From Leucoraja erinacea (lineage: Eukaryota), in the NCBI RefSeq assembly GCF_028641065.1, contig NC_073399.1, positions 18,972,001-19,036,000 of the forward strand: DNA of 64,000 bases, in the 5' to 3' direction. A program made the position numbers and the translations under genes. This document shows, one piece after another, positions 5,014 through 46,300 of the stretch. The notes beneath the pieces were generated by a model, which had not been told where the DNA came from, did no database searches, and saw only the letters and a program-made list of their open reading frames with translations. The first letter of the stretch is position 1. Every line of letters begins with the position of its first letter.

Positions 5014-18620
<13,607 letters not shown>

Positions 18621-19015: not shown

Positions 19016-19034
19016 TAACTCTGACCATATGAAG

Positions 19035-19640: not shown

Positions 19641-19825
19641 TTTACAGTTAGTCTCATACATACACTAAGAGCAAAATCGTGCTAGACAAACTAATGGGGC
19701 CAGAGGCTACTCCCTTGGGCACAATGGCCACTAGGATCTTTGTGCAAGTCGATGCATTGTGGACACACGTGTTGTAATGTACTAAAATTTCCTGGATTCT
19801 GAAAAGGTCTTGAAGAAACACAAAT

Positions 19826-20140
19826 GGCGGCACAGTGACGCAGCAGTAGATTTGCTACCTAACTGCAGCAGAAACCAAGGTTCAATCATGACCACATGTG
19901 CTCTCTGTGTGGAATGTGCATGTTATTGCCGTGACTGTGTGGGTTGTCTACAACAAAGATCCTATAAGATATTTGGTCTACAATGATCTAGTTCCACCCA
20001 CATTCTAAAGTCGTAGGTTAATTGGCTTCTGTAAAGTGCCCCTGGTGTGCAGTATAGAACTAGTGTATGGGCGATCATTGGTCGGCGCGGACGCAGTGGA
20101 TCGAAGGGCCTGTTTCCACGCTGTATCTCTAAAACTAAAA
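19826..20140 (+). mobile_element. tRNA-derived SINE interrupted by a footprint insertion
   Basis: A/B-box-like head ggcggcacagtg...ggttcaatc, family core and tail ctaaaactaaaac. Confidence 0.82.
19954..19975. mobile_element. 22-bp near-palindrome with 8-bp TSD, inserted in a SINE
   Basis: CAAAGATCCTATAAGATATTTG flanked by GTCTACAA on both sides. Confidence 0.75.
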
Positions 20141-20699
20141 CCAATGGCACTATTAAGAGGCTGCCCTAAAGCAGGAAACTTTAGGGCAATTATCCTAACA
20201 TATGAATTGGAAAAACGCAGCAATCTATTATTAAAGAGTCCATTCAAGAGTCAAGAGCGTTTATTGTCATACGTACTGAAACGGAACAACTACATTTTTA
20301 CATGCAGCAGCAACAGCACAGCAGTTTTGTAATCATATTATATACATATTTTCGCCCAAATCTCAGCAACATGTTATTTCTTCGCTGTCAGACATCTCTT
20401 TATTAGAACTTACCACCGCAGGTTTATCGCCGCTTGATCCACTTTGGAACAGTGACCACACTTCAAAAGCATCTTCTGGGAGTAGCAGTGACCTTGGCCT
20501 AAAATTGATCACTGAGTCCCGCTGTCAACAAGTTTCATCCCATTCCGGAACCCACCTCCTATATTGGCCATGCCCCAAGCCCAATCTCATCGCCCACTAG
20601 AAGACAGCGAAACACAGAGTGCTGGAGGAACTCAGTGGGTCAAGCAGATTCTGGGGAGAGAATGCATGGACGGCGTTTCGGGTCGGACGCCCATTGTTT

Positions 20700-21300
20700 C
20701 ATTTCAGCTCCGCCCAGAGGAGCAGGCTCCGCATTGTCACCTAGGAGACGACGCCCCGTCACCTTGGAGACGCGGTATTGCTTTGGACCAAAGATCTTAT
20801 AGCAAAGCTTTGCTATAAGATCTTTGCTTTGGACGATGCGCTAGGCCCCGCCTCGTCACCTAGGAAACGCGGTATTGCTCCGCCTCAGAAGCAGACTCGG
20901 CCCCGTCACCTTGGAGACGTGACTTACTCCACCCTCGGCCCCGTCACCTTGGAGACGTGACTTACTCCACCCTCGGCCCCGTCACCTTGGAGACGCGGCC
21001 TTGCACCGCCCCACCAAAGACTCCGCCCCGTCACCTAGGAGACGTGACTTACTCCATCCTCGGCCCCGTCACCTAGGAAACGCGGCCTTGCTCCGCCCCA
21101 GAAGCAGACTCCGTCACCTAGGAGACGTGGCCTTGCTCCACCCCCGTCCCAGGTCCCGCCCTTAAGACTAGGGAACCTCGCCATGCTTCTCCACCACTCC
21201 TCCTGGCGGTCTGAGTGACGGGGCGCCGCGCCGCACCGAGTAGACAGAAGTGCGCGAGGACCGGACTTGTGGAAAAGACGGTTTCCTTGGACCCTGGCCG
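20700..21300 (+). promoter_or_regulatory. CpG-island promoter of the RUN-PDZ-PTB gene, with nine X-box-like motifs and GC boxes
   Basis: GTCACCTWGGARAC at 20736, 20758, 20855, 20905, 20943, 20981, 21030, 21068 and 21113, interleaved with ctccgcccc-type GC boxes. Confidence 0.7.
20789..20826. mobile_element. 38-bp perfect palindrome with 8-bp TSD (P-like transposon footprint or mini-MITE)
   Basis: CAAAGATCTTATAGCAAAG/CTTTGCTATAAGATCTTTG flanked by CTTTGGAC on both sides. Confidence 0.8.
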
Positions 21301-21309
21301 TAGACGAAG

Positions 21310-21346
21310 ATGTCCAGAAAGGAACCGCTGCTAGGCGCCTTGAAGG
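21310..21346 (+). CDS. RUN-PDZ-PTB gene exon 1
   Basis: aagATG, MSRKEPLLGALK, donor G/GTGAGT, within a CpG island. Confidence 0.8.
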
Positions 21347-24300
21347 GTGAGTGCAGTCCCGAGTGAGGCGGAACGGCCTGATGATGGGGCGGAGGAGGGG
21401 AGGTCAGTAAAGGGGCGGGGCCGTGCCTGGGTTTGGGAAGGTGGGCAACTTGTCACTGGCCACCTCTCACTATCTTCGTAAAATAATTCCAAACTACTTT
21501 GAAACAATCAGAGTGGGGAACTTCATTAAAACTTATGTCAGGGTGGAGCAGAGCAGATACTGGGAAATATTTCATTATAATCTATGTTGAGAAAAAGTAT
21601 TTGAGCAAGACAGAATACGTTGAACGATCTTTCCTATTATTATTAATTTACTGACACGTCGACGTCCAATTTTATTAAGTAAATCAATTCGGCCAAGATG
21701 AATTGATTGCAGAGGTGGCATGGAAGAAGTATATTTTTTGGGGGAATTAGTATTTTGGGAATTGTATAATCACCACATGAAGAAATGTATCTGAAGCAGC
21801 TATAAATTTATGACTCATGTTTGAACAGCACTTTGGTGGAAAGACATTTGTGTTGCAATACAATGGCCTCTATAAATACCATCTTTACCTTGTATTATCC
21901 TATTGCCTCTGCATACTATTGTGCATTATTTTACAAATCTGTGACGGTGAGCATTCTTCTTTCTTTGGCTCCTTGATTTGCTTTCTTTTTACAGTCTTCC
22001 CATTTTCTGTGTGTGGTTCTCTATAACTTACTTATAGGTTACATATAAATTATCTATTTGCTATATCCTATCTCTCCACCTCCGAGAGTCCCTTTTCACT
22101 TCGTGGCCATCGTCTTAGAAATAAATAAGACCAGTATTCCGCGGCCAGTCCATGTGATGAAGAATGTTTATGGCACAGAAGGCCATTTAACCCATGTCTG
22201 CTGTTCAAAAAGGGTTAAATAATCCAATGCCAACTGGATCGGCAACCACATCAAATGGGTGGTACAATGGGTCAACTGTTAGAGTTGTTGCCTCAAAGTG
22301 TCAGAGAGCCCGATTTGATCCTGACCTTGGCTGCTATCTGTGTGGAGTTTGCATGTTCTTTCTCCCCATCACCATGCAGGTTTCCTCTAGGTGCTCCGAA
22401 TTCCTCCCACTTCCCAAAGACGTGTGAGTTTTGTAGGCTAATTGACCTCTGTAAATTGCCCCTAGTGGATGGGGAGTGTGAAAGTGGGATTGTTAATTCT
22501 GGCCAAATTTGAGATGCCAGGACACTAAAATTGAGTAATGGCTTCTGGGCTGCTAGACCATTTGGTCAATTTAAATGTGCCTTCTGCAGAATGGTGCCAG
22601 TTTGTCTAGAGCCTAGATAAGAGTTGCAGGAAGAGAATGGAACATCTGCAGATTCTGACAATTAGGTGTAAATTGCATGGAAAGAATTGGGTGAATGCAA
22701 ACCAGACATACACATTGTAAATATTGTTGCAAAGCTTTACTTTGCTAGATGTTGATTGGGTTAAGTGCTGAGCCTTGTCTGGGTTTCTTGAATATCCAGA
22801 CATTTGTGTTGCATAATTCATCTCTAAACTTTCATCTAGAAACTTTGTCAGATACATTGTATTAGTCACTGTATTATTGGGTTTGGGGAATGTCTATCAT
22901 GTACTGGGTTAATCGATATCTGTTATTGGACTGTATACAGACCACCCCCATATGGTTCGGCCCCTCAAGGTTCGGGGACCTATAAAAGGCCGCTCCCACG
23001 AGGTCCTGTGTCGATCTTCTGGGACTGCATGACCTTCTGGAGTGTCTCTTCTTGCAAGAGGCTAGGAGGGCTTGGCCAGGCAGATACAAGGATCAAACCC
23101 GCGGTGGTTTGGTATAGTAGTGGGAACCGTTATTGTGTTTTTCCAAAAAATAAAGTTTAGATGCGCAAGTGCTTGACTCAGTATTTTATTGACTGAAACT
23201 AGACTGGGGAAGCTTAGAATGAGCTATTTACAGGATAACATAGAAGAGTGTTTTTAAGTCCCTCTTTAAACTATTTCTATAATAAATGTAATATTATATT
23301 TCTAAGTGCCTATCAATGCCTTTAGCTTAACTGCCCTGGTCACCACACTCCATGCATTTTACTGATTTCACATTAAATCCTAAATACTGGTCAAAGACCA
23401 GGAGTTTCCTGAACCATCTTCTTGTCCATTTGCTCTACTGGACAGAATCCCTCTATGCATGCACTCTTGAATCATAAGTAACCATCTCATGAAAGGTACA
23501 CTCTATGAAACTATTCGCTTCAGGATCAGCTGCTGCTCGGGCACAAACCCAGAGCTTGACTTGCCCCAGCCGATGTCACTTCATTCTGATTTGATTTAAT
23601 CACTAAACAAAATGATGAACAACATAATTAATAATTTAAATAGAAAGTTGCACCATTGCACTTGCCTCACTGAAGTCCCTTGCTCTCCATACACTGCACC
23701 TTGATTGTTCAGATCTATTGTTGGTGCCCAGTGTTAAATCCAAAACAAACACATTAGGTTTGACTCGGATCAGGATAACAGAGTCCATAGGTTTTGTTGG
23801 CTTATTGAAGTCTTCAAAATGATAAAGGAATTTGATAAAGGATATGCAGGAAACGATTTCCTCTCACAGAGAGGAAATAATCGTGTTATGCTATCAATTG
23901 ATGAAAAATAGGCAATATCCATGTCTGACACAATTCTTCTTGGACAGTAGGATATAGTAATGAGGGATAGCAGGAATAATGAAGTGGAGGAAAAGAGTAG
24001 CCATGATATTATATGGCAGATCAGTCTAGCGGACTGATTGGCCTCCTACTACTACCATACGGAAAATTTATTTTTATGAAATAACCAATCACTGTTTTAT
24101 TCAAGTAATTGCTTCAAATTGGGAGATAAAAGAAAGTAGATAAAATTAAGAGTTCTGAATTTAAAAACTAGACTGTCTAGTTAAAAAGGGTGTGGTTGCT
24201 GTAGACCATTGATGAGCAGTGAATGCAACTTGCATTCTTCATCATGTCACTGATGTCTTTGTTGCCTCCATGGTGAGGTTTTGATTGTTGTGGTTCTGCT

Positions 24301-27300
24301 CACATAATTATAGGGCTTGAGTTGCGCATCAATTATCTTGTTGGGCTAGAAATCTAAAAGCCAAACAAATAATCCAGTTGACAGGATTTCAAATGCCATC
24401 ACAAAGTTTAATAGAATCTGGAAATGAAAAGGAATGACAGCCAAACTATTAAATTATTTTACAAACTGAACTGATTCACTGGTGAGTTTTTGGGACAGAA
24501 ACTACCAAGCCTCATCCAGTTTGAGCTCGTTCCACATCAGTGTTTTGATAATTAAGAGCCTCAGCAGTAGATTGGCATCACAGCCCATAATGATAGGTAA
24601 AAGGGTCATCACTTTCTTTTTGGCAAGTACGAATTGGTAGTACAGGTATATAAATACACCTTCACGCTATCTTTAGAATTTTAACCTTTAGAGATACAGT
24701 GAGGAAACAGCCCTTCGGCCCACCAAGTACATGCCGACTAGCGATTTAACTGTTGTTATAGTACATTAGAGTATAATGCTCCCCTCTCCCAAAGGGCAGG
24801 CAATACAAAACCTTGGATGCACAAAACACTAGATTCAGGAAAAACAACTTCCCCACTGTTATCAGATTACCGAACAGTCCTCCCATAAACTAGGTTGTAG
24901 CCCATATCTCCCAATCCACTTCATTGTAAACCTTGGAACATTTCTCTTGAACTGTATTGTTATAATGCTGCAACACTATATGTTTCTCTCTGCATTGCCT
25001 GTTGTACTTGTATATGGCTTAATTCTACTCGTATTTAGAATGATTTGACTGGGTAGCATTCTAACAAAGCTTTCACTGTATCCTGGTGCAAATACAACTA
25101 TTGCCATACGCAAGTACCACAGGTAGTGCAAAGAGAAAAATGCCAGAGTGCAGGTTAGCATAAGCGTTACAGTACCATGCAGCTGCAATAAATCGTTACA
25201 TCTTTTGGGAAATCACACAACAATGTCACTCTTCTGATGGACTCCTAGATGAGATCGTTTTTGATGGAATCGCAGAAGGAAATTGAGATTGTTGAGCACG
25301 TTGTATTCACAGAACAGGAAGAGGCCATTAGGTTTGTTGCACTCAGCTCAGTTTTTCAAAAACTTTTTATTTTTCAAATGAATTTCTGGTTTTCAGTTAA
25401 AAGCTGTTGGACCAGATTTTACTGATAATGCTGCTGTTCCATGTGTGCTACGGGCATTTTCCCGCAAAACTATCAGATTTGGGACTTCCTGTGCAAATAT
25501 GGAACTACTGAGCTTCCTAACAGTTTCTCTGTGAATTTTCTGATATTGGTCATCATGCAATCCATTGGTAGAGTGACAACATCCTGTGGTTTCACAGCAG
25601 ATGTGTTGGGGAATCTGCTGCTGAGCATGTGACTATCTCTTGTGACTCCATTCATTTTAATGGAGAAAAATACCTACAAGGGAAAGGAAACGAGTAGTTA
25701 AGTATCAAGTAATTTACATTTATTGAATTAATGTAAATGTAATTAACCAGGCAACTGAACGGTCCCTCATCAGCTAGAGTGCGGTCCCGACTTCCCTTCT
25801 GCCTGAGACCTTTAACCATCGTTTATTGAACTTCAATGTTATATCTTGCACTAAACATTGTACCCTTTATCCTTGGGTAGACAAAAATGCTGGAGAAACT
25901 CAGCGGGTGAGACGTGCATCTATGGAGCGAAGGAAATGGGCGACGTTTCGGGTCGAGACCCTTCTTCAGACTCGTCGCTTATTTCCTTCGCTCCATATAT
26001 GCTGCCTCACCCGCTGAGTTTCTCCAACAGTTTTATCTACCTTTGATTTTCCAGCATCTGCAGTTCCTTCTTAAACATTACCCATTATCCTTTATCTGTG
26101 CACTGTGGACAGCTTGATTGTATTCATGAATAGTCTTTTCTCTGACTGGATAGCACGCAAACAAAAGCTTTTCACAGTACCTCGGTACACATGACAATAA
26201 TAAACTAAACTTAACTTAATTGCATTTGAACTTAATTTTTTTTGTTTTTCTCTTTAACATTTCAATGTATGTTTAATGGTTTTTGAATGCTTCTGAATAT
26301 TCTTGCCACTCTAACTATTAAACAATTAAAATGTTTGGCAGTTAGTGGTATTTTGATAATCCTCTGTACCCATCTTCTACTTCTGAATTCGCTTGCTCCC
26401 TGGAAGAGCTGAAGCCCTTAATTCTATGATCGTCCGGGAATTTATTTACCTCAACTTTAAATATATCCAATGATCCAGCCTCCACCATTCTTTGGAACAC
26501 AGAATTCCTGAGACGCAGTCCTGTATCTTGAAACTTTGACCTCTCATTTGAGATTCTTCCACTATGGGTCTTTGTGAATTCCAACTAAACCATTGTTTCT
26601 GTGTATAAATGCCACACGCTAACTATACTCATTAATTTAAAATATTTATAATGTCAATCCCTGGGTGGTTTACAATGATCGGTTTGGAACAGATGAAGCT
26701 ATAAGAAAGCAGTCACTCTTCACTACATGTTCCACTTTACTACCCTCACTTCAGTAGCCTCTTTGTACTGCTGCAGTCATCAAATTGCATAATCTTCCTA
26801 CACTTTATTTTCATTTAACAAGTATCTGTTGAACACAGTCTGTGGCTGGGACTCCTGCATCCCCCAAATGCTAGGTTGCATACTTGCCTGGCTTTATCCT
26901 TCTGTTATCTGACAATTGTCCAAATTTAAGCTATGAGTAACCTGAGGGGTGTAACTGCATCCTGGATCAAAGTCTGCACATGTCAATCTCTCATGCCATA
27001 CAAGGCCAAAGGCTGAGACTCCATTGTAACTCTTAGCTGAAATTCCCCAGTATGCATATATTTACTGGCAGCATCTTGGGCTCTTTCTAGTTTCTCCCAG
27101 TTCTCAGATTGGCCCAGTTATTTCAGGGGAGAAACACCTGAAAATTGTTTTTCCTATTTAGTTCAGATAATTTCTGCATACATTCAGCAATAAATTATCC
27201 CAATTATAAAATGGGACTCCATGAGAAAGGCACCATCTGTGGTTAACAAAGACATCAAGGAAAATGTTTAATTGAAAAGCAGGGATTCAGACTTGCAGGG

Positions 27301-30300
27301 GCTGGTGGTAGACCAGAGGATTGGCAATTTAAGGATCCAATAGCAAATGATTAAGAAGCCCACAAGAGTGGAGAAAGTTGATTTTTAGAGAAAACATGAG
27401 TGCAATATCAAAACAAACAGTAAGAATAGGAAGAACCAGCTCGGGTAGGTGTGGGATTTCCAGAAAATGAGTCTGATGACTTGACAGGAAACAAATAAAT
27501 GGCAGATATGTCAAACGTAGTCAACATTAGTTTATGAAAGGTGAATCATGTTTGTGAAATTTGCTTGATTTCTTTGAGGATGTGACGGGTAGTGTTGATA
27601 TGAAGTTTTGGAGGAACATTATCAGTGGGGATTGAATGGTGGCTGTTGCCTACAAAAGAGTTGAGATAAATGGATCCTATTCAGACCATGGAATTGCAAC
27701 TGATGGAGTACACCAGGGATAGGTTCTTGGCCCTCAACTGTTTATTATAATGACTTGGAGGAGGGAATGAAATGTAAGGTTTCAAGTTTTTCCTCATGTT
27801 GCAAAAATATGTGGAAAGACATGTGATAAGGATGCTGTGAGTCTTCAACAGGACATGGAAAGATTAAATGAATGGGTTAATACCTACCAAATGTGGGGGA
27901 GTGGAGTTCATTCATCCATTAAAAGGAACAAACAGGTGGATTATTATCTAAATGAAGAGAGATTGCAAATTAATGAAGTTCAGAGGTATCTAGGTGTTCG
28001 AGTACATGAATCACAAAATGTTAATAAGCAGGTCTAACAAGTTAAGAGGGCAAATGGCATGTTTATTTTTAAATGTTGGTGTTTAATAATAATTTCTTAC
28101 AGTTGTACTGACTGTTGGCGACACACCTAAAATATTTGTACAGTTTTAATCCCTTAATCTAAAAAAGGATATCGTAGCATTGGAGAAAATGGTGGAAATT
28201 GATAGGAGCACAAATATTGATGTCATACAGTGTGAACACAGGCCCTTCGGTCCAACATGCCCACAACTGACCAATATGTCCCACCTACACTTCTTCCACC
28301 TGCCTGTGTTTGGCCCATATCCCTCTAAATCTGCCCTATCCACGTGCCTGTCTAATTGTTTATTAGATGCTACTATAGTCCCTGCCTCAACTACCTCCTC
28401 TGGCAGCTTGTTCCATAGACTCACCGCCCTTTCTGTGAAAAAGATAGTCCTCAGATTCCTATTAAATCTTTTACCTTAAACCTATGTCCTCTGATTCTCG
28501 ATTCCACTACTCTGGGCAAGAGACTCTGTGCATCTACCCAATCTATTCCCCTCATAATTTTATAGACCGCTATAAGATCACCCTTCATCCTTCTACGCTC
28601 CAAGGAAGAATCCCAGCCTGCTCAACCCCTCCCTATAGCTCAGACCCTTGAGTCCTGGCAACATCTTCATGAATCTTCTCTATACCCTTGCCAACTTGTT
28701 ACTCTGGCTCGAGGGTGGGGAACCTTTTCATGTTGCAATGCCGCATTAAGTTAGCTGTAATCTAATAAGGCCGCATCCAAGAAACTTCAATTAGATATAC
28801 AGGTACTTCAAAATATACATTATTTTGTAAAAATCAAACTACTATGTACTAACTTCAAGAAGATGAAAGAAAATTGTTAATTCAAAAGTTAATTAACCTT
28901 TTAATGACTTTGTTGTGACTGCATTTTGTGGGAAAGCATTTGAATATTTGGTTGCAACATGGAGGTACGCAGTTTCAGATGATCTTCCAGATGGGTATCC
29001 GTCATTTGTGACCTTAAGGGCGTCTTGATTTGGGTTAGGTAGGAGAACGTAGATTCGCAGCAATAAGTGGTTGAAAAGCAAGAAAGCATTTTTCGTGCAT
29101 GTCAAACGTACATTCTAGAGTCGCATTAGAACTAAATCATGAGCATAACAGGTGTTAAAATAGCCCTCATGATTTACTAATGTTTTAATTGTGTCCGTCA
29201 GTTGGGGAGGATTATTTTGTTGAATATTCTTTTACTCTTTGGTATTTTAAATACGTTCATTTTAAGAATAAAAATAATAAAAGACGAACAAAAACATATT
29301 AGTAAAAATAAAGGGATTTGTGCTCCAAAATTTGGATCCATTCAAAAGGCCGCACTTAATGGCCTAGAAGGCCGCAGGTTCCCCACCCCTGCTCTGGCTG
29401 ATCTTGCCTGGAGTGTGTAGAATTTTCAACTAAGTGTTTTTGAGTAGTCATCATCTTTGGTAATTCAACATATTTGCAAATGCAAGCTGCCATGATGTTT
29501 CACTGTGCTCATTTTCATTGTTGTTGAAAGCTGCTCAAATTTCAAGACCCCATCAATGAATATAACCCTAGTATGTTTTAATTCCCATATTCTTTAGTCA
29601 CGAAAGGGGATTCTCTGTAATATTGAAGACTCGCAGATCAGTTAGACCCTGACTTTTGCTGACGTAAATGTCTTTAATAATTTTTCCAAAAATAAATTTT
29701 TTTCCAAAAAAAATCCCTATTACTTATCTATTTCTCCCTTTCATTCATGATTTAGTTTGTTGAGTATGGCCATCATTTTGTTTGCTACATTGTCAATTAA
29801 TTCCTGTTAATATCATGGCCATCAGTAAAAATGCAGTCCCACCATTGCCTGTGTCTTTAATTTTCTTTTATCCCTTATGCGATCCACTAGCTTGTTTGGT
29901 TTTATTCCAACAGCTAGGCTAATTTAAATGCCTCCAAATATTCCTGCATGAAACAAATAATTATTTATTTAAATATTATTTTAACGCACTAGCTTTTAAG
30001 CTACTTGTTGTTTTAAATGTGTGTACAATGATCTATGTATATGCCATTTTTCTTTCTAAATTTCCCATAAGTTTAAAATCTCATATCTGATGGATATGGC
30101 GAATCAGTTCTGTCATTGCTCCAGTGAGACTATTTTATGGGTAAACACTTCTGTACTTATTTATTTTATTGAAGTGTTTAATGTCCCAAGCACATCCATT
30201 CCTAAAGATTATGGCAGGACAGTTCTCGTGGATTTTAATGCCGTGTTTGAGTTAATTCTGTGTTCTGGGAGACACTTTGAGATTTGATATCCCTGCATTT

Positions 30301-33300
30301 TGTGAGATAATTACTATCTCATTCTCCCTGACCATTAGATAATTGACTGAAGAACCATTTATTTCTGTTACAGAGTGCAGTGATATTATCTAGTACACTG
30401 CTTAAAAGGTAATAAGAAACTATTTATTTTACAACCCACAAATAGAAATTTGAGAAAAGGCATGCAAAGAAAAGGTTTCTATGGTTATGAAGAGAAAACA
30501 GTGTTGTGGGACAAGAGCTCTTTCAGAAATAAAGACAGTGCGCCAAATGGAAGTCTTCTAAGCCAAAACATGATGCCACTCTGCTAAAGTTTGTAACTTG
30601 TGCAGCAGAACAATGCAGCAGACCCAGTCACACTCTAGTCCCATATCTGTCTTCCTGCTTGAACCCATTAAGAGGAGGGAGGGGGAGGGGAAGGGTAGGT
30701 GATAGTGAGCAATACGATGATTTAGAATGTCAATGAGAATCAAAGTGGTATCAAATTAAGAATCAGTGCAGGGCAGCAGTGGATTCTTGGCCATTTGTAT
30801 GAGTTGTGGTAAGGACAGCATGACCTTGAGTTCATTTTTTTTACCATGGGTGATGGCGCATAGAAGAAGTGCCCACTATCTCAGCATAGCCTGAATACTA
30901 AACCATAGTACTACACTTTGATGTTCAATTTCAGATTGATTTTACTCCCCAGTGTGGCCTTCTACACTAATGACAGTTGATTTGTTTTGTCTACAGCATG
31001 CATCCTAAACATCCAGGCAGACAAAGATCCCATCACCGATGGTCATCCTCAGCTCACATCCTTATGTGATATTCTTGAAATTATCCTGCGGAAAGGAATC
31101 CGACGTAAGTAACTGCAGTGCCTGGCGCGCTTCTTTCTTTTGGAGATCTGCTGTAACGTATGTTACCATAATGCAAATAGGATAAAATGTAATAGAGTCA
31201 AACAGCGTAGAAACCTGGTGCTTCAGCCCAACTTGCCCATCCCAACCAACAAGTCCCACCTGCCTGCGTGTGGCCCATATCCGTCTAAACCTCTCCTATC
31301 CATATACCTATCTAAATGTTTCTTAAACGTTGTGATAGTAACTACCTCCTACGGCAGCTTGTTCCATACATCCATAACCCTTTGTGTAAAAAAAAAAAAA
31401 AAGTTGCCCTTCAGGTCCCTATTAAATCCTTCCCTTCCTCGCCTTAAAACTATGTCCCCTGGTTCTCAATACCCCTACTCTGGGCAAGAGATTCTGTACG
31501 TAATCTATTCCTCTTGTGATTTTGTACACCTCTATAAAATCACGCCTCTTCCTCCTGTGCTCCAAGGAATAAAGTCGTAGCCTGCTCAACCTCTCCCTAT
31601 AGCTCAGTCCTGGCAACATCCTCATAAATCTTCTCTGCACCCTTTCCAGCTTGACAGCATTTTTCTTATAACATGTTGCCCAGTGCCTCGCCAACGTCTT
31701 TTATAACTGCAACATGACCTCCCAACTCTATACTTAATACTCTGACTGATGAAGCCAATGGGACAAAACCTTTTAGGCCCCCACCCCCCCAACAGTGGAG
31801 AGTTTACTGACTGGTTGCACTATGGCCTTGTTCTGTAAGTCGAACACCCAAGAGCAAAGAGAATTGCAGGAAGTATGATAATATATTGCCCAGCCCATCA
31901 TGGGTATTGACCTCCTCAGTTCAGAAGGAATCTATAAGAAGCATTGACAGTAAAATGAATTTTTGCTGTTGTGAAATGGTGGAATTGTCTTGTTGCAGAG
32001 CCAGTCCTGGGGCTGTGGAGAAGAGACTACTGGCACTGGATGGAGCAACTTCCACAACAGGATACCTGTTCCAGGTAATATACTGCCACCAATTTCAACA
32101 GAATTTGCTTTGGAGGAAGGGACCAGTTGCCTTATCAGGTCTATCAGCTCTTTGAAAAACTTGTTCAACCTGGATCGATTCCTCAACTTCTTCCTTGTGC
32201 CCTGTGACTCGTTCAATTCCCGTTGAACATTGCTACTGGATTTACTGCTGCCCCTCCACTTGGATGGGGCACACTTGCTTATTGGACTCTAAGTCTAAAT
32301 AAAACTGAGAATTTTAACAGGGAATGCGACTGACAGGAAGTGATTGAAATAAATAATATATCACCAAAAACAGCCGATGTGGTCATCGTTACATCACAGT
32401 GATCAAGTTTACAATCAAGTTTACTTGCTGTGAAAGATACGTATAAAGTTCCTTCCTCTATGCTTGGACTATTTATTTGATACATTGGATAGGTAAAGGC
32501 ATGCCTTAATTCATGAAAGAAGTAACCATTGTTCATGTGAAAAGTCAGTTTTACATAAATGGAATTATGTAACACTGTTAGCAATTAGAATCCAGCAACT
32601 GGAAGCTTATTTGTGTTGTACTGAAGTGAATGGGCAAAGTATGTGAGCTGCCAGCACATGTGGAGCACAGTTCAATTACAAATATCGAGGGGCAGAACTG
32701 ACTTGTTATGCAGTTAAACTGAAAGATGGTGGACAACGTGCATCTGTAATTTGAGCTATTCCATGGATGGGGAAAATAAATAACCATCTTCCCTTAATAA
32801 AGTGGTTTGAAATGTATCTTTTAATATGTATTTTATTTTCCTCATTGCTCTCAATAATGTGGTGATGAACCACTGCCTTGAACCACTGCTGTCCTTCTGG
32901 TGAAGTGTCCCCAACCACAAATAATGTGGGCGTGTTATAACTTTCAAAGTAGAGCTGACGGACCTGCGATATATGTCAAAGGGAGGATGGCATGTGACAA
33001 GGAGAACCTGCAGATGTTTGTAATTCCGTGTCCATAACCCCTTAGCCCTGGTAACATTGGAAAATGGTGCCAGAATAATGTCGTGACCTGTCTTGTCCTG
33101 GGTGATGTCAAGCTCTTTCAGTATTGTTAGATCTACACTTGTCCAACCAAGTGACGTTATTTGGTGGCAGGATGCAAGTCATTTGCTCCCAGTATTGACC
33201 ACAGTATTTTGATGATGCCGAATGCCATGAGAGATTATGCCATCAAGTATCAATGACTGACACTCATTGCAGATGTTTAGTTTAATTTAGAGATACAGCG

Positions 33301-36300
33301 CGGAAACGGGTCCTTCAGCCCACCGAGTCCGCACCGACCAGCGATCCCCACGCATTAACACTATCCTACACCCATAATATTGAGAATAAAGTTAGATTAG
33401 ATTAGTGTAGTGTTGGTGTAAATGGGCGGTTGATTGTCAGTGAGGGCTCAATGGACCAAAGGGTTAGTTTCCATGCTATGTCTTTCTAATAACCTAGGTG
33501 CCAAGTTTGAATGTTACCTGGGCTTTGTTGCATTGAGGAGTTGTGAATGAATTTCAATGTTACACAATTCTGAGCAAACATCCTCACTTCTAATGTTTTG
33601 AAAATTGGAATATCATTGACAAAACAACTGAAGATGGCTAAAACTCTGCCCTGAGCAATGTCCTGGGCTTGGATATTTGATCTCTAACAACTTCAGTTTT
33701 GAGCAAGTGAAATGTTTTCCTGTACTGTCCATTTACCAGGGTTTCATGATGTGGTCTAGGTGTACAGATAATCAGTCACCTCGCCTCATCTAGGCCCGTC
33801 TGAAGAAATTGCCTGACCCAAAATATTATCCATCCATTCCCTCCATAGATGCTGCCTGACCTCCTGAGTTCCTCAAGCATTTTGTGGTTTCCTCAAGATA
33901 CCAGGATCTTGACCTCGGCTCTTTTGTTCATTTTTGGACTAGACTGTGTTCTGCAACTAAACCTGCTTGGTGAAATCCACACTGGGTATTGGTGAATGAC
34001 AGCCTCTTGAGAATACTGTTAACAACACCATTTATTAATTTGCAAATGAACATGATTGCAAATGATTCAGGCTTGTCTTTAGCACTCACGTGCTCGCCTC
34101 CACCAACAATGATCTGGAAGTCCTCACAAACTAGCAGCTTAATTGTCCATCAGTCATCATGAGGTGTGGTAGTCATGCAGAGATTTGTTTTGATTTATTG
34201 TTAATGGGATGACTTACTTTTTGCACACTTTTGCTGCTTTGCCATTTTTTCAGGCATGCCCTTCTACATATCTCGTTGAACCAGGTCTGATTTTCCTGTG
34301 CTATAACAATGAAACATGTTGGTAAGATCATATAACGAAAGACATTTCTTTCTGCTGCTGATGATCCACAGTGCCTCAAGGCTGCCCATTTATGCACTGC
34401 CTGATCTTGTCTGTGTCTAAAAGCCAAATGCTGGAAGCTTGTGAGCAGGTCAGACAACATTTGTGGAAAGATAAATTGTTAAATTATGATCTGATTCTTA
34501 CAGCAACGTATGAATGCTGGGGACAGAATCCATGTGTGTGTAATTTTGTCTGGCCACTGCGCAGACAGGTCATGTGGAAGTGGGTAAGATGTCCGGCATG
34601 TCTGCTACATTCTTCACGTCCCGCAATGGCGGAGTAAGGCAGGCATAACAACAGCACAACAGCTTGGTCTTGTGGCTAATACCTCTTCATCCCCACGCTT
34701 CACAATCTTCCAAAAGAGCTGGCTTTTGTTCACATTGTAATCAATGTTGACTGATCTTGAGAGAGTGCTGCCAATGTTTCTCCACTACTGAAAATCTCTG
34801 ACTATTCACAAGGATGTTTGGTTCTGTCTTTGGTGCAGGCTGGTGCATAATTTCCGTTTTCTTTGCACTAATTGTGAAGCCAGGGTTGCTACAGGTGCTG
34901 GCAAATTTGTCTCCGTTTTCCTGCAGATCGGCCTCGGAGCTACCATTGAGGACCCAGTCAGCAAAGAGGAGGTCCCTTAAGGTGCATTCTTGTACTTTGG
35001 TTTTGGCTGAGAGTCTCTCTAGATTAAAAAGAGCACCATCGGTCCTGTAGCTTAAGTTGATTCCATCTTGTTTATCAGGGTAGGCATTGGGCAGCATTGC
35101 AGAGAATATCATATAAAACATACAAAGAAAATCATAAACTAAACTTGCCATCACAATAACAACGATCCTGGAGTAATGTGTTTCCACATATGTTTTTGTG
35201 CTGGATTGTTCCTCAGCTATGTTAATTTGTTTTTAATGGTGTTTAAAGTCCAAGAAGCCTTCACTTTCTGGGTTGAATTTTGATTCTGTTAACCATGCAA
35301 ATAATATGAAGTATGTCAGCAGGGAGGCAGAGAAGGGGTGTCATTTGTGAAGACGTGTAATATTGCAATTCATACAGTATAATTTGGTTACTTGACTTTA
35401 ACCCCACACATGGTCTGAAATACGCGAGTATTTGTGAATAAAGGGCTGATTTGTTGATTTGCAGACAAAATGCTGCAGTAACTCAGCGGGTCAGGCAGCA
35501 TCCCTGGAGAAAAGGAATAGGTGACGCTTCAGTTCCGAACATTTTTTCAGACAGCCCAACATTAACATTTATTGACTGTTCCTTTCCTCGTTCCCCAGAT
35601 TACCTCAGCTCTCCATGGCCTTGGAGAAAACTCTTGCTTGCAAAAGGACACTGACGGCACAAGGCCGGGGCCGATATTATATCCGCCAGGCAATGAATCG
35701 GAAGATCATGGCTGTTACAATACACCATCTACTCCACACTCCAAGACTCCTAGAGGTATCCACACCTGTTTCTTCAATGCTCTATGCCAAACGGAAAAAC
35801 CTCCTTTCCCAATATTCAGGCATCACTCAATCATCACCTATTGTCATTTTTCCTTGGATATTACTTCTTCTACACATTCCTTCCTCCTGTCTTCATTGAT
35901 CCCCTCATTCCATTCATCATCCATCCATTTATTATTGAAGCTTGACTTCGGCGACATAACTATAATAAACCATTTCAAAATTGTAGCTGAAGTAACCTTT
36001 GCACTCTGGGTGGTTTGCCTATGCTTCTGTTTGCAAACAGATTGTGATGACTTGTGGTGGGTCAATCTTTGATTTGGGGTAGGGATGGGGGAATAGTGTG
36101 GCGTTGGTCTGTCGTCTTGTGAATGTAAGCCCAGTTTTCCTTTTGCCATGTGGTATTCCAGACTGAATGGTGGGGTTCATCTAGTAACTGATTAGAGGGG
36201 CACAGGGCTGTAGAGATTGCAATCAAATACAGGTGCGAGAGTAATAATAATCCAGTTTTGACAGACATATTTCACAGAACAATCTCAAAGGCGCTCAAGG

Positions 36301-39300
36301 CCTGAAACGCATTAATAAGCATTGACCAGAAAAGTACATTCAGAAATACTAGAAAATTTGTCATTGATCAGTCTGATCTAAATCATTCCTCTCTTTAACC
36401 TCTCCGTTCCTTTTTGTTGCAGTGGTATGATCGTGAGAGCTCCGTCCTGACCAATGAGTGTTTTGCAGGTAAGAGCTCTGGTAGTTTAGTATTCTTCTGA
36501 TTTAGGATTTTCTCCAACCAATAACCTGATCAGGTTGGGGCCGTTGTTATCTTGGACGGGGCAAAAACTCCCTGGAGTTTACAAAGGATTTCAATGGAAT
36601 AGCAATAAAATTTACAATTAACGGCGTTTAGAAGAGTTCTGCCTCGCAGTTCAATCCTAACTTTGGGTGTAGTTGTGTGAAGTTACCCATTCTCCCTGTG
36701 AACTCATGGATTTCGATTGAGCTCCAATTTCCTCCCACGTTCTAAAGACACGAGTTGGTTAATTGGCCACTGTAAATTACCTCGAGTGTGTAGGAGAGTG
36801 GTAGAATCTGGGAGAAAGTTGATGTGAATGTGGAGAAAATAAAATGCGATTAGTCTAGAATTAGTGTAAATATCATTTACTGCTTGATACAGACTCAGTT
36901 AGCCAAAGGGCCATTTTCTGTGCTGTAAGTCTCTATCAAATGGTTTTATACACTTGGAAAAGGGATTGAAATGTGATGTGGATTTGTGAAGTATCTTTAT
37001 GGAATGGGTTGTGCAGCTTGTAAAGGGGAGAGTTTATGGGTGAAGGATTTCAGAAATGGATGAGGTTGAAAGGTTAATGAGAATATCTGCTTTATCGTTT
37101 GGGTGGAAAGATTTATGCAGCATGGGAGATTTTAAGGTGAAGTGCTTATGAGGAGGGAGGTCGGGCAGTTGGAGAGATGAAGGAACGTTCAGAGGAGATG
37201 CTTTGAAGCTTCAAAGTGTTCACCTTATTCTCATTTTCCTTCAGTAAATGTCTGAGTATTTTAAGCAAAAAATTATTCATCCTCCAGAATCTTAATTAGC
37301 ACTTTATTCGAAGATGAAATAGGATTTTAATTTTGGTGGAATTGCAAATGATTCTTACATCCCAGAAATCCGTTCTAACTGTGGTCAGTGGCGGACTGGC
37401 CAGGGTGTCAGCTTGCTCGATGGCAAGTGGGCTCCTGATGAAGTTGGCCCCCTATATTAAGTGGGCCCCTGATGAAGTGGGCCCACTTTGTCTCCTGGCA
37501 ACCAATATTTTTAGACCCAGTCCGCCACTGACTGTGGTGTCCAACGTATGACCCTCACCTTGTGAGTCTTGGTTCTTGGTTTCTTGGTCCTCCAAAATAT
37601 TCCAAATGGAATTTAAACTGAAGGTGGTGAAGGGAGGGCTTAAGCCAGAAAGGGTTATTGGGAAGAAAGAGCTACTTTAAATTTAGTTGCATCTGGTTGA
37701 GTAACTATGGTTGGGTGGAGTTTATTCCATGCTTTAATTGTGCGGGGGAAGAACGAATGCTGTATATATCTGTCTTTGTAGCTGGGATCACAAATTGGAT
37801 CGAATGCCCTCGTCTGCTCCTAATTGGTTTGGGTTTGGTGTAGGTCTTGTAGCCCATGTCGAGCTGACCATTTAACATTTTGTAAAAACAGGTCAAACGG
37901 TGAGCTTCATGTCTGTCTTGGAGAGGGTTCCACCCCAGGTTATTCAGAAGTTTGGTGACATTCGCTTCTCTCTCATAGGTGTTAGTAACAAATCGAGCTG
38001 CCTGTCTTTGGACACGTTCGATGGATGAAATGTTTTTAGCCGTGTATGGGTCCCATGCTGCAACTGCGTAGTCCAAATGAGGTCTAACGAGGATGAAGTA
38101 TAGCTTCTTGACAGAAGTTGAACAATGATGAAAGTTGTGCCTCAGAAAGGACACCTGTTGCTTTCACCGTTGCATGATGAGTCTGACCATTCCAACGCAG
38201 ATCATTCTGCAATTTGATGCCAAGATACTTGGTTTGTTTGGATTCTTCAAGGTCATATCCACCTGCAGAATAGGTCTGCCCAGCCTGTGGGCTCCACTTC
38301 TGTCCTTTCTGGCCTGTATGGTAATGGACGTGGCAGCAGTTCCTGGGATACTCGGGACAGTCCCGACTCCTTCAAAGGAATGGCCATGACGTTATCCATC
38401 GACACTACAGGAGAACTGAGACAAGTGCTGTAGCTGCAATCATGAATTAGAGGTTTACCCCTACAATCATCCCCACCATTGTCCATATCCACACTCCCAA
38501 TCCCTACCATCACCCCAGGACCCAGGGACCACAGAGCCTGAATCCTGACCTAGCCTTCATTGCATGTACTGTACAAGTTTCGCTGTATAACACCATGGTG
38601 CAGTGTGGCAGGGGATGTGATTGGAAAAATGATGGGGTACAATACTGGTCGGTCTGTCATTGTGCAATGTTAGGGTACAGTATTCATGGTATCAGTCTGT
38701 CACTGTAGAACACATGGTACAGTATTGGTGGGGACTGTTATGTCATTGTATAACACTGAAGTCCAGTTCTGGTGTGCATGGGTCTGTCACTGTCCAACAA
38801 TGGGGTACAGTACTAGTGGAGATGGGATTGTTGTATAACACTGGGGTACAGTATTGGTGGGGATGGGTCATTCACTGTATAGTACTGGTGGCAATGGGTG
38901 CGTATTACACTGGGCTACAGTACTGATGGGGACGGGTCTGTCACACTAGGGTACAATACTGGTAGGGTTCTGTTTCGACCTCCCTGTTAATTAGAAACCC
39001 TCATGATCTGAGCTGAACGCCTGATCAATACTCAATGGTCTTCCCTAATTTTAATGAATGTAATCACCCTGCCTGAAAGCCATTGATAGGGAAGATAAGG
39101 ATTGTTCAGGGCAGGTGCATGAACAATTTATGCAAGTATATCCCGGCTTGGTGCAGTGATCTCTCATTACTCAGCCCGATCCCTGTAGCTCTTAGTTCAC
39201 TTTTGGCTTTTTCTTTTGTACAGAGCCTTTCCTCTCACTGCTACTGGTCTTGTCACAGATGAAATTCACCCTTGACCTTGAGGTTAGTATTGATAAATTG

Positions 39301-40307
39301 GATAATCACAATAAATGTTTTTATTGATGGTCAGTCTGGATTGCTAATCCAAAATTTCAAGAATTAATTATTTATCTCTGATAATTTCCAGTACTTTTTG
39401 TTTAAATTTAAATATCAAATAAATGTATTTGATTCCAGGTAAAGGGTCTCCTCCTCGAAGAACGTTCAGTATGCAGTAGTTTCAATTTTCATACTATAAT
39501 AACCTTTTAATTGCACCTTGTGTTAATTGGTTCCAACTAAAAACTGGATGGAGATTGACAAACTAATTCTATGTCTAGGTGTGTTATTCTGAAGTAATGA
39601 GATATTTCTGTTTGCTTTTTTTAGAACAGCAGTTTTCTGGATGAGAGCTGGCTCCTTCCAGTAAGTATAGGTATTTCTGACTCAAATGTATAATTAAAGG
39701 GAATGGCAGCAACCTCTGCAATGTGTTGCTCAAGATCAACATGGAATGATGTGGAAAGTAATGCCTAGAAATTGGTCATTTCTCTACCTTGTCTTTACCA
39801 GCTTTTACATTCTAATGACTTTTGTATTCAACAAGGGTCAAAAAGTTTATTCTAGCACAAATATCAAACTGCTGGAGGAACTCAGTGAGTCAGAGGCAGC
39901 ATCTGTGAAGGGGAATGGACGGATTACATTTTGGGTCAGGATCCTTCAGTCTGTCCATTTCCTTCAGCGGATGCTGCCTGACCCGCAGCATATAAAAGGC
40001 ATGCTCAATTGGGTTCAGATCGGGTGATTGACTTTGGCCACTCAAGAATTGACCATTTTTTAGCTTTGAAAAACTCCTTTGTTGTTTTAGCAGTATGTTT
40101 GGGATCATTAGCAGTATGTTTGGGATCATTGTCTTGCTGTAGAAAGAACTGCCGGCCAATGATTTTTGAGGCATTTGTTTGAACTTGAGCAAATAGAATG
40201 TGTCTATATATTTCTGAATTCATGAAGCTACTACCATCAGCAGTTGTATCATCAATGAAGATAAGTGAGCCAGTACCTTCAGCAGCCATACATTCCCAGG
40301 CCATAAC

Positions 40308-40343
<36 letters not shown>

Positions 40344-43300
40344 ACCACCGTGTTTTCACAGATGTGGTGGTATGCTTTGGATTTTGGGCAGTTCATTCTC
40401 TCCTCCATACTTTGCTCTTGCCATCACTCTGATATGTTAATCTTCATCTCCTTTGTCCACAAGACCTTTTTCTAGAACTGTGGTTGCTTTTTTAAGTACT
40501 TCTTGGCAAACTGTAACCTGGCCATCCTATTTTTGCAGCTAACCAGTGGTTTGCATCTTGCAGTGTAGCCTCTGTATTTCAGTTCATGAAGGCTTCTGCT
40601 GACAGTGGTCATTGACAAATCCACATCCGAGTCCTGAAGAGGGTTTCTGATCTGTCAGACAGGTGTTTGGGGATTTTTCTTTATTATAGAGAGAATTTTG
40701 TCATCAGATCAAGCTCTTCCTTGGTCTGTCAGTTCCCTTTGTGACTAGTAAGCTCACCAGTGCTCTTTCTTGTCTCCAACAGTTTTATTCTTGTTTCTCA
40801 GTCTCATAATGGCTTCATTGACCTTCATTGGCACAATTTTGATCCTCATGTTGATAAACAACAATAAAAGTTTCCAACGGTGATAGAAAGACTGGATGAA
40901 AGACTAGTTGCTGAGAACTCTCTTATACAGCATTAAGGAGGCAATTAAACTCACCTGAGCAATTACAAATGCCTGTGAAGCCATGTGCCCCAAACATTAT
41001 GGTGCCCTGAAATGGGGGGACTAAGTATAAACACAGGTATAATTTTTACCTGGTGAAACCAAAATATATTAAAAAAACTTTTAATAAAATCTGATAAATG
41101 TGCACCACATGCGGTTTATTTATTTTTTATTTTTTCCTTTTTTTTTCTCTATTACAAATTTCAAATTGTTGAGTACAGAGGCAAATAAATAAATGATTGG
41201 TTTTTGTCCCAAACATTATGGAGGACACCGTATTTAGGTCATTAAAATTTCAGCCTAACCTACTGAGCATTTGCACAATATTTTGCTTTAGTCATTTGGT
41301 TTCCAAGAGCAATAACCGAGTAATGATCTTGTGCCTCTTGCTACATTGGCCAAATATACTGAGACCAACTGTGGTATCACCAATGCAGATAAGTTAATAC
41401 ATTCAGCAGGAATTAAAGCCGGGAGTTTCTTGTTTGTATATCTGTAGGCTTCCTGCAACTACATCTAAAACATATTCAATTCTATTTTTGTACATTAACC
41501 TCCGGAATTCCCGAGGGTGATGGGTAACTTGTTTCTTGCTGCCTATGTGCTTGTGTTAACTCCAATTTGCAATAGCCCATGTAAGAGACTATTAGATAAA
41601 TTTAAGTGGTAACAAAAGGTTTGAAAAAAGTGTATTGGATCTACTTTACTCTCCCATTCCTTGATTTGCAGTTCTACTACACATTAAACTTCAAATCTAT
41701 TTAACCTTTAACTCAAAAGCTTTTGGGAGCAGAGGGGTGTACTGTATTATGCACTCTGAGGAGTTGACTAATCCAGATTTGTTCTTGCACAGGTGTGCGA
41801 GATGTATAACACGGTCCCTTGTCGAGAGCTGGGAATGGTACTCTGGTAAGCGGCAACTTTGCAAGAGAGGCCTCACCAAGAAATATGAATTGATTGAATT
41901 GTATGTTGCAATGATCTCTTTCTGTGCTGTAACCATTCAATGATTCAGTCCCTATAATGATGACTACAGTGAAAAGTGGAAATTACAATGCAGTGCAGTG
42001 GGGGGGGGGGGGCACGGTGGTGCAGTGGTAGAGTTGCTGCCTTACAGCACCATAAACTCGGGTTAGATTTTGACTACAGGTGCTGTCTGGCAGAGTTTGT
42101 ATGTTCTCCTTGTGACCACATGGGTTTTCTCTGGGTGCTCAGTTTCCTCCTATACTCCAAAGGCGTAAAGGTTTGTAGGTTAATTGGCTTCCGTAAAATA
42201 TTGTAAATTGTCCCTTGTGTGCAGGATAATGCTAGTGTACGGGGTTATTGCTGGTAGGCCGGTCTCAGTGGGCCGAAGGGCCTGTTTCTGCTCTGTATCT
42301 CTAGAGTAAAGTATTTAATCGTGAGTCTTAGTGCCTGGAGGTTCGTAAATAACTAGAAAATGCCCCTAACTTCAAGAATATCAGAATTTTCTGGGCTTAA
42401 GTGTAAAGATTCTAGACTTGTCTATAAGAGTGACGGTGAAATAAAAAAACTATTTGGTGATCTGGTGGTTTAATGCTGAGACATTAGAAAAAAATTGTGC
42501 CTACTGACAGCTGGCATTTCCTTACAGGTACACTGGTGGCCGTATTTTTGTAACGGAGGTTATTGCGGGAAGTCAAGCTGAAGCAGATGAATGTGTCCAG
42601 GCAGGAGACATTATCGACGAAATTAATGGCGTTGCTTTGAGAAATGCCAAAGGGGGAGAAGTACGTGCCTCTTGCTCATTGTCAAAGAATGGCATCTGTC
42701 CTACACAGCATGTGTTTGTCTTCATTGTTGTACTCCTAGTGCCATTGATCTGGAGTTAAATCTCAGGTCTGCAGTAACAGTTTACTCCTTCAGTTTCTCC
42801 ACCCACGGGTTATCGTGTTTCGGTTCATTCATAAGACGTGGCAATCATCAGCAAGGCTGTTATTTGTTAGTGATCTTCAAATACCTTCAAGATAGCCCCA
42901 CACCTTCAACCACTGCAACCCTTGTCAACCAGATAACCAATGATACCCAGTATCACTGCTGCAAATTAACTTCCACCTAATGGTCACGTCGCACAGACAC
43001 ATCTGCACTTTAGTCTGTTTGAACTGTTTTGACTATTTTACTGTTGTAATGTTCTTTTTACAAACCATGTTCTCGGGGTATCTAAATTTTATTAGTTATT
43101 TAAATTATGACATTGGATGGAAGCTGCATACCAAATCTCGTTGTGCTTATGTGCAATGACAATAAAATATAATATTATTATTATTATTATTATGCTAATA
43201 CGTTTGAGAATTATTATCCAGTTTAGTAAGTGAGTGATTAAATGTAACAACATGTTTGATCCAGTCAATAACTTTGTCTTGGTCCATCACAAAGCCAGGT

Positions 43301-46300
43301 TTGATGTTCAGTCTGACCCACTGCAGCTCAAGAAGTTTCTTTGAAGAATTTAGCGAAGATTCTGACGACTGCAGTGGCACTATTGAGAGCATAGCCTCTG
43401 AGTGAAGAGATCTCATTCTGGTTAAGTTTCTTACAATGTTCAATATATTGTACCTCAGGAGAAAAATATTTCCTTTGGAGGGCTGCAGTATCAATTCAGT
43501 AGGATAGTACTGAGGCTTAGACAGTTACTTTCAAGCTGGGTTGCTAAGCTCAGCATTGATTCCAATGACTATTGAAATTGGAGGTTGATATGATCAGGTT
43601 GTATAACATTAAAATAATTCCATAGAGTAGACACGATACATTGGATTCATACTTGAACTATGATTCTCTCTCTGAAAACGGAATCTTTTTGTGGATGCTG
43701 GGCATTAATTGAAGTTTGAGTATTCTTAGATAAGGGATTCAGTGATGAAGCAGCAGAGGTGAGTAACTCCTGAAGTACATATTAACAATGATGGTGATGG
43801 AGACCAGAAGAAGTGAACAGCCAATTCCAATTCCTAAGTTTCCATGCTGAGGATGGGTTTACTTGTGAAGAGTGTGCTTAAATACCTGAGAGTTTCAGTA
43901 ATTTATCCAATATAAGAGACCCCAGGAGAAGGATAATGAGAGGAATTCCCGAGGAAGTTGAGAGGGCAAAATAAAGGGATATGGTCACATGGTGATTCAT
44001 TTACTAGAGTTGCAACCAGAAGTACAAAGAAATCTGAGTTTGAATTCTATCATGGGAGCTGGGTATTCAAATTGAATTAAATGCATTGAATTAGAAAGTT
44101 ATTTATTTTTAAGAAGGAACTGTAGATGTTGGAAAATCGAAGGTAAACAAAAATGCTGGAGAAACTCAGCGGGTGAGGCAGCATCTATGGAGCGAAGGAA
44201 ATGGGCAATGTTTTGGGTCGAGACCCTTCTTCAGACTGCTTCTTAATTAGAAAGTTAAGTTGGTCTCAGTAACGATGATCACGGAACACCCACATTTTTG
44301 TTAAAAGTCCATCATTCATGGATTTCCCTTGAGGTAGTTAACCTGTCCAGTCTACCAGTCTACCAGTGACCCCAGACCCACCAATCTCGTTGAGTCTTAG
44401 TTGTCTTTTCATTGCGTCCTCTGAGCATTCCTTTTCAAAACTTGTTATTTTTCTGACCATGCCCTTTCCATTTGTTGCTGTGATTACTTCAGGCTCAAAC
44501 AGTTTTACAGAAACTTCGAGGAAAGCCGTTAAGTTTCCGCATGATTCACTGGAAATGGCACGATGGGTCGGTTTACAGACCCATGCTGCCTCATCTCCAG
44601 CTGATGCAGAAAGAGTTCCCTGACTTTCAGCTTCGATATGATACCAAATCAAACAAAGAGATGTCAGAAGACAGGCTGCAAGATGACAGGTGAGAATCTA
44701 ACCAACTCAAAGCTCGTTCTCATACCTGTGACTTTGGAGATACAGTGCGGGAACAGACCCTTTGGCCCACCAAATCCACATTGAACACTGACGACACCGT
44801 ACACTAACACTATACACACTAGGGACAATTTTACCGAAGCCAATTAACTGACAAACCTGTAAATCTTTGGAGTGTGAGAGGAAACCCATGCGGTCGCTGG
44901 GAGACAACACCAACTTTGTACAGACAGTACCCATAGTCAGGATCGAACGCGGGTCTCTGGCACTGTAAGGCAGCCACTACCACTGCCCACTGATTCTCTT
45001 AACTCTTGAAGGCCATAGCTAGCAGTGCACTTGGTTTACAGGCAAATTGGTTGGTTTCCCGATCATCAATCTGGCTTGATCCAAATAAAACTCATTCCCT
45101 TCCTGTCCGTCCAAATTCTGCCATTGTTTTGGTAAATAAAATGCCAGATAATTATCACCTTTAATCCTCTTAAACTATCCCATCACTTCTCCATTTTCAA
45201 CTCCCAAGGCATGAAGACTCTGTATCTCTTCTCAAAGACTGACTGTACTACCATAGCTGCCTCCACACCAGTCCATACTATTCCATTGAATCGTGTGGGC
45301 TAGCTTGAGTGATTTTGATTTGAAGTTGGGTGTGGTGGCATTTGGTGCTGAAAACACCAATCCACCTGTTAGATCAGCATTAATCGGCACCGAGCATCAT
45401 CCTGTACTGGCCAGTTTGAATTTATTTTATTTTTCTCATGGATTAATGGGCCCCAAGGGAGAGAGTTTAAACATGGACATGCTTGGTGTGGTTTAATGCT
45501 GAGGTTTTTGTGGATGCACTACTGAGGATTTTCTTTCTGCTGCAGGTTGCTGTATTCGCTGCGGTACTTGGGCCAGGTGAACATTGGAATGGTAAACACA
45601 GTTAGCAGTGAGTTGTCTGTGCTCCCCACTAATAAACAATAATTGCGGTGCTACATCAGGGAGCTTGGAGTCGGCACATGGGGCAGTTTTTGTTCCACAA
45701 ATGTTGAGGGGCTAAACGTAACTTTTTTAGTGAACTAGATTATGGAACTTCTCCAGCAGTTGTGTGATGCTACAGCAGGCATTTTGGGAAAAAATCTGTG
45801 TTAAATGCAATCAAGTGCTTTGTACATCACCAGCACATCTCCCAGCTTCGAATCTCAATACATCGTGCACAGCATGGTGATCACTGGGCTTCCACAGGGA
45901 TGTCAAATAACTTCAACAATGCTTCAGGTAGTCCCGTGTGAAATGTGACCATGTTACCAGATCAGTGAACAGCGAGTGCCTTGTACACTGATTAAGATAA
46001 TGAGAAAGTTCTGAGGAGATAACTAAATGTGATGAAGGGGAAAATGTAGAAGCAGTGTTTTTGGTTTTCTAGAAGGCATTTGATTAGGTTCCATATCAAA
46101 GGTTACTGATAATGCAAGTTGTGTGAAGTCGGACGCAATATAGCTGCTGGAGCTGATAAGCAGAAAACAGAGTCCAGATGTATCGATGATTGTCAGTATG
46201 TTTGCTTCCACAAAACTGCTCTGTTATTTCAATTGGAGCTCTCCCATGCACGGGGCAATCTCAGTCAGTGCAGCACTGATCATCTCCCCGACCCCTCCCT

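Follow-up and report, generated by a model that had tools for sequence, protein, structure and literature searches.

The window, a stretch of 64,000 nucleotides (64 kb) from Leucoraja erinacea, contains on its plus strand a gene with 16 coding exons (21310..52196) that encodes a RUN-PDZ-PTB(PID) protein of 427 amino acids. Apart from the exon edges, the 16 coding exons matched the Leucoraja proteins P0001 and P0124. Pfam gave RUN, PDZ, and PID domains in the close homolog P0002, in agreement with the RUN-PDZ-PTB protein read from the sequence in a preliminary description of this DNA; a search of solved structures returned PDZ domains only. The gene was treated there as unnamed. A database name exists, and we identified the gene as the ortholog of si:ch211-250n8.1. 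A text search of the literature with the single term ch211-250n8.1 did not find it in paper texts. Among the 20 long profile matches that were looked up (150 were listed), 14 belonged to named clusters, which represented lamprey, crabs, snail, coral, flukes, insects, sponge, and copepod; the homologs in crabs and the copepod were full-length. The family ranges from sponges to birds and is pan-animal. When a turtle protein was used as the query, no mammal was observed among the best 120 of 373 matches, which suggests that the family may have been lost in mammals.

The transcribed leader and the first coding exon of this gene occupy 21150..21346 on the plus strand, with the ATG at 21310 and the splice donor GT at 21347. 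They are located in a CpG island at 20600..21450 (GC 0.61, CpG observed/expected 0.82). In the RNA run X24, of which 5% was used, the depth was 0 over 20918-21033, 0.03 over 21034-21149, and approximately 6-8 over 21150-21381; on exon 1 of the neighbouring GALK1 gene it was 0.9-1.7. Because RNA coverage begins near 21150, the repeat array described below lies upstream of the transcript, approximately 25-410 bp from the first RNA coverage. The array is thereby placed less than approximately 500 bp from the probable start of transcription, and functional X-boxes were reported to cluster in a -500/+500 window in the available part of PMC5838959. X24 also showed a depth of 10-18 over 20686-20917, where 96% of the placed reads continued in a manner unlike the window; we infer that these reads came from repeats elsewhere. 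In the leader, an upstream reading frame of 11 codons was observed at 21183-21218, with the ATG in the context CGCCATGC.

The first coding exon of GALK1 is encoded on the minus strand at 18260..18471, head to head with the RUN gene, and lies in its own CpG island. Its ATG is 2839 bp from that of the RUN gene and 2265 bp from the array. A compact promoter common to GALK1 and the RUN gene was considered and rejected, since each gene has its own CpG island and the islands are separated by 2.8 kb. At its start, GALK1 carries a tandem duplication of 39 bp (18417-18499), as a result of which ATG blocks occur in frame at both 18471 and 18432. At the other side of the RUN gene, an intron-bearing gene for an H3.3-type histone has its first coding exon on the minus strand at 59100-59237, tail to tail with the RUN gene. 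In the frog tables, H3F3A and GALK1 are on one strand with a 20-kb gap between them, in the same order as in the skate; a gene model between the two was not found in the tables accessible from PMC5245798.

The array itself is a degenerate GC-rich minisatellite (20706..21150, plus strand) of one monomer family that occurs in a 50-bp and a 38-bp form, with a partial unit at each end. Each unit is composed of a 14-mer and a spacer. The 14-mer GTCACCTWGGARAC gave nine exact matches on the plus strand, at 20736..20749 (site 1), 20758..20771 (site 2), 20855..20868 (site 3), 20905..20918 (site 4), 20943..20956 (site 5), 20981..20994 (site 6), 21030..21043 (site 7), 21068..21081 (site 8), and 21113..21126 (site 9), so that the spacings are 22, 97, 50, 38, 38, 49, 38, and 45. 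The sites lie 184-574 bp upstream of the ATG; the preliminary description had correctly placed nine copies with these spacings 180-570 bp before it. When two or fewer mismatches were allowed, only three additional matches were obtained in the 64 kb, and they were the same sites read on the minus strand. The 12 matches exceeded the mean of 1.53 in shuffled sequences, and 12 was reached in none of 100 shuffles. Because all nine are copies of one minisatellite unit, this excess is trivial and shows repetition only.

The nine 14-mers form the common core of the 50-bp and 38-bp units, and Tandem Repeats Finder and a repeat scan gave array periods of 38, 87, and 125. The 38-bp spacer type corresponds to the 50-bp type minus approximately 12 bp, plus a few transitions; unit 1 is incomplete, and unit 2 is interrupted by an insertion. 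The tandem amplification of a promoter module that had been proposed is indeed visible as a monomer repeated head to tail, and GC boxes are present, as had been noticed (CCGCCC at 20710, 21006, 21023, 21093, and 21156; CACCC at 20930, 20968, and 21139). No fixed helical phase was seen in the spacing of the nine sites. Two other repeats were observed in the vicinity. A second, unrelated minisatellite, degenerate and with a 36-bp period, occupies 19306-19640 in the same intergenic spacer and is covered by contigs of two of the other organisms compared below (organisms B and C). Directly upstream of the array, 20613-20660 is a short high-copy repeat, which is a tandem unit elsewhere according to the RNA reads (a joint going back 47).

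The insertion in unit 2 had been overlooked previously. The 97-bp spacing consists of a 51-bp unit and a 38-bp palindrome with an exact 8-bp duplication: at 20781..20834, two exact copies of the 8-mer CTTTGGAC enclose a perfect palindrome (20789-20826), the removal of which leaves the 51-bp unit. The bins over the palindrome (20686-20917) showed repeat-level depth in all three DNA runs. Shorter relatives were found in the window at 19954-19975 (8/8 letters of the duplication) and 19035-19054 (6/8). Non-autonomous hAT elements have terminal inverted repeats and an 8-bp target duplication. The insert at 20789-20826 has these hAT-type features, including many copies; it resembles such elements in being a perfect inverted repeat with an exact 8-bp duplication and two relatives in the window, whereas it differs from them in that the skate inserts are only 20-38 bp long and contain no internal sequence. 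The palindrome would thus be a micro-insertion made of hAT-like terminal repeats, the family presumably being hAT. The palindromic inserts of 20-38 bp with 8-bp target duplications form a small family, like hAT ends lacking the interior. When the array was folded as DNA, a z of -4.8 was obtained. A structured-RNA reading was dropped because the centroid consisted mainly of the 38-bp palindrome and because the array lies upstream of the RNA coverage. An Rfam search of 18200-22000 gave a single match at chance level (E 0.67), and a G-quadruplex pattern was not found on the G-rich strand of the array.

Subsequently, the array was compared between animals using four of the 24 listed runs, namely the DNA runs X2 (organism A), X7 (organism B, a related skate), and X14 (organism C), and the RNA run X24. 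Organism A was taken as the species of the window on the basis of the highest word share, and the copy-number statement at the level of individuals assumes this. In the single organism A DNA run compared, the X2 contig skips 21066..21110, a 45-bp unit on the plus strand that holds site 8. The bin depth of X2 was 47.2, and 47.3 was expected for complete absence of this unit. Thirteen letters are common across the joint, which appears too few for an assembly jump with 31-letter words; hence, X2 is considered to carry an 8-site allele. The copy number of the array differs between individuals, with eight versus nine sites, as had been anticipated; this difference is new here.

In the related skate, 20799-21044 was contained in one X7 contig with seven changes and one gap, and sites 3-7 keep their order. 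The ends of the X7 contigs were explained by only one of three models, that with a full-length unit 8, in which two letters unlisted for X7 were borrowed from the X2 rows. The depth of X14 was 2.2 over 20918-21033 and approximately 12 nearby, hinting at a different arrangement of the array in organism C. The window letters at 21005, 21015, and 21235 differ from both X2 and X7 and are either private alleles or assembly errors. More broadly, at 21005-21017, 21235, 21277, and 20716 the letters of the window are unlike those of X2 and of one or more related species, reflecting a private haplotype or an assembly error. The coverage of X2 includes GALK1 exon 1 and the greater part of 20619-21549 and leaves out the unique stretch 19294-19757, a pattern that would fit an active-chromatin library.

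The 14-mer had been likened to the X-box bound by RFX factors, and scoring with RFX matrices had been suggested. We used the RFX2 matrix JASPAR MA0600.1 as given in supplement 3 of PMC5838959; its T row was derived by subtraction, and nine printed values were reproduced. All nine sites scored 8.6-11.7 bits (relative score 0.87-0.90), corresponding to medium RFX2 sites, and all nine exceeded the JASPAR threshold of 80%, in support of the X-box likeness. The scores were 8.6 bits for sites 1 (TAGG-GAC type), 7, and 9 (approximately 25 bp before the start of RNA coverage), 11.5 bits for sites 2 (TTGG-GAC type), 4, 5, and 6, and 11.7 bits for sites 3 (TAGG-AAC type) and 8. On the better strand, p ranged from 3e-5 to 1.3e-4; with a uniform background, p was below 1e-4 for six of the nine sites with 14 columns and for eight with 19 columns. 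In organism B, one change in site 4 gives 8.6 bits, and two adjacent changes in site 6 create a GGTAAC half-site, giving 15.1 bits and a full match to the Emery consensus. A tenth, weak X-box-like match of 9.4 bits is located in the 5' leader at 21281-21294.

In all nine sites, 12-14 of 16 positions are self-complementary, forming an imperfect inverted repeat of two 6-nt halves and a short spacer, and the sites score with the matrix whichever strand is read. The loose consensus RYYNYY-N2-RRNRAC fits all nine copies on both strands; elsewhere in the window it occurs 1.4 times per kb, and five sites there reach at least 11.5 bits. No copy in the window fitted the Emery consensus GTNRC(C/N)-N0-3-RGYAAC or the restricted Drosophila consensus (0/9 each), and the previously quoted form GTNRCC-N0-3-RGYAAC likewise fitted none of the nine. 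The RGYAAC half-site was absent on either strand of 20690-21310. According to the available part of PMC2375033, the degenerate consensus alone is not predictive of RFX dependence in flies. In the human material at hand, validated X-boxes span 6.6-21.4 bits, and five of seven exceed every skate copy; seven of nine validated sites were scored, the shorter ALMS1 and CD70 forms being left out. The matrix and position tests were passed and the strict consensus failed; we filed the array as X-box-like and not as a proven X-box.

These results are also open to another explanation, namely that the array is a neutral GC-rich minisatellite in which the palindrome is like an X-box by chance or is bound too weakly to have an effect, and that the promoter works through the CpG island alone. 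We consider this rather unlikely, though it deserves serious attention. Conservation of the motif is relevant here. In units 3-9, two of the 14 motif columns and 12 of the 26 spacer columns were variable (Fisher p 0.08, two-sided); the count excluded units 1 and 2 on account of the truncation and the insertion, respectively. Permutation gave p 0.047 when the X-box window was fixed, but 0.37 when the 14-column window was freely chosen, and 0.51 for the free window after one window-private change was dropped. Hence, the earlier statement is right only as to direction, the 14-mer being more conserved than the spacers, and the significance of this difference is borderline. Against organism B, the array was 2.8% diverged and the flanks 1.2-2.7%, with only close skates compared, so that the array showed no excess conservation; three of the six listed changes fall in motifs, and one of them lowers the score. 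The signs of selection on the motif thus appear weak.

A neutral origin would also be in keeping with the absence of the strong half-site and with the lack of a whole unit in one sample. Other tandem repeats are present nearby, and the unrelated 36-bp minisatellite in the same spacer indicates that such repeats arise readily here; moreover, since many factor motifs exist, a chance match to a repeat unit would be expected. Nevertheless, a palindrome of X-box grade that scores on both strands arose in only 0.11% of simulated 50-bp CpG-island stretches, which makes it rare per monomer (it arose in 1.1% of 500-bp stretches, and a single-strand 8.6-bit match in 12% of simulated 500-bp islands). The palindrome is found at the typical position of an X-box. 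In addition, the variants tend to hold or raise the score: when 42 single changes were ranked by how far they raise the score above that of the TAGG-GAC form, the two variants among the window copies came fourth and fifth, a ranking that is post hoc and assumes the polarity.

Another reading assigns the array to CREB/ATF and Sp/KLF factors, which would use the GC and CACCC boxes and a CGTCA half-site overlapping the 14-mer on its left, and not to RFX. CREB/ATF proteins use half-sites of the CGTCA type. CGTCA is present in eight of the nine copies, both kinds of box occur in the spacers, and the invariant block reaches left beyond the 14-mer. This reading, however, gives no reason for the retention of the right half, GGARAC, in every one of the nine copies, where it completes the 14-bp palindrome, and we regard it as improbable.

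We favour, with modest confidence, the view that the array is a promoter VNTR multiplying an X-box-like site to which RFX factors bind. The closest comparison is the 33-bp VNTR of the TRIB3 promoter, which, as described in the accessible text of PMC7425993, is likewise a repeat in a proximal promoter that overlaps a factor element and varies in copy number between individuals; in the skate array, too, the units stand head to tail in the proximal promoter. The TRIB3 repeat contains a C/EBP-ATF site, occurs in 1-5 nearly identical copies (one copy in other mammals), and alters expression to an extent that has been measured; it exemplifies promoter VNTRs that tune expression by multiplying a factor site (PMC7425993, same text). 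In contrast, the skate array carries an X-box-like site, has two unit lengths, and is composed of older units.

As to the site, the array resembles the RFX X-box promoters of MAP1A, IL5RA, FGF1, DYX1C1, and DCDC2 in its imperfect inverted repeat of 14 bp, which has a 2-bp spacer and lies near the start of transcription, as far as the available portions of PMC5838959 and PMC5024701 describe them. The validated human site of IL5RA shares its TA spacer and GGAGAC half with the skate sites (PMC5838959). Each of these known promoters has one or two sites, which are for the most part stronger and were examined by binding or mutation tests (PMC5838959, PMC5024701), whereas the skate array has nine weaker, repeat-derived copies that lack the RGYAAC half. 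A repeat array of RFX sites was not found in the literature, as judged by titles and the beginnings of abstracts.

On our preferred reading, an ancestral proximal-promoter monomer of approximately 50 bp would have contained a GC box and a single X-box-like palindrome of medium strength. Head-to-tail copies may then have arisen by unequal exchange or slippage, a deletion may have given the 38-bp form, and a tiny transposon remnant may have entered unit 2, in an order of events that is our reconstruction; the gain and loss of units would be ongoing. Dimers of the RFX1/2/3 type probably bind at least some copies; the array would then behave as a group of weak sites and, in concert with the Sp/KLF sites, hold the promoter open and activate si:ch211-250n8.1. 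The copy number may influence this activity; tissue specificity is no part of the proposal.

The X-box likeness had been taken to predict that the protein is an RFX-driven trafficking adaptor of cilia or testis. This is compatible with a VNTR of RFX-bound sites, yet we think it unlikely, and inferring a cilia or testis role from the X-box is unsupported. A row for the gene was not found in those expression tables of PMC4199137, PMC5245798, and PMC9252172 that could be searched; control terms likewise went unmatched in PMC4199137 and PMC9252172. RUN, PDZ, and PID domains, confirmed here, are used in trafficking. RFX is the top motif at the promoters of multiciliated cells (PMC5245798) and at RFX2 targets in testis (PMC4498915), in the parts of these reports available. 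However, known cilia genes account for only 180 of the 911 direct frog Rfx2 targets (approximately 20%; PMC3889689). In the accessible direct-target table of the same study, which includes genes within 10 kb of a peak, frog galk1 was absent and the control IFT88 was present; frog galk1 was found in a list carried over from that study. The absence makes a strong Rfx2 peak in the surrounding 10 kb slightly less likely, the draft assembly and the intergenic distance being caveats. The distribution of the family is also to be considered. Full-length homologs are kept in crabs and a copepod, the sperm of which are not known to have flagella, and mammals, which retain all known types of cilia, were absent among the best 120 of 373 matches to the turtle query. 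This range does not point to a part of the motile cilium or the flagellum.

If RFX does not bind, the array is an ordinary minisatellite. It is very doubtful, in our opinion, that selection amplified weak RFX sites as a copy-number dial for an ancient adaptor acting in cilia or sperm; if that were true, the natural alleles would test whether many weak X-boxes can replace one strong one. The RUN-PDZ-PTB gene, an ancient and unstudied adaptor, may deserve more attention than the array itself. Should RFX bind, the skate alleles would form a natural series of weak X-boxes at different doses and would provide the first functional handle on the si:ch211-250n8.1 gene family.
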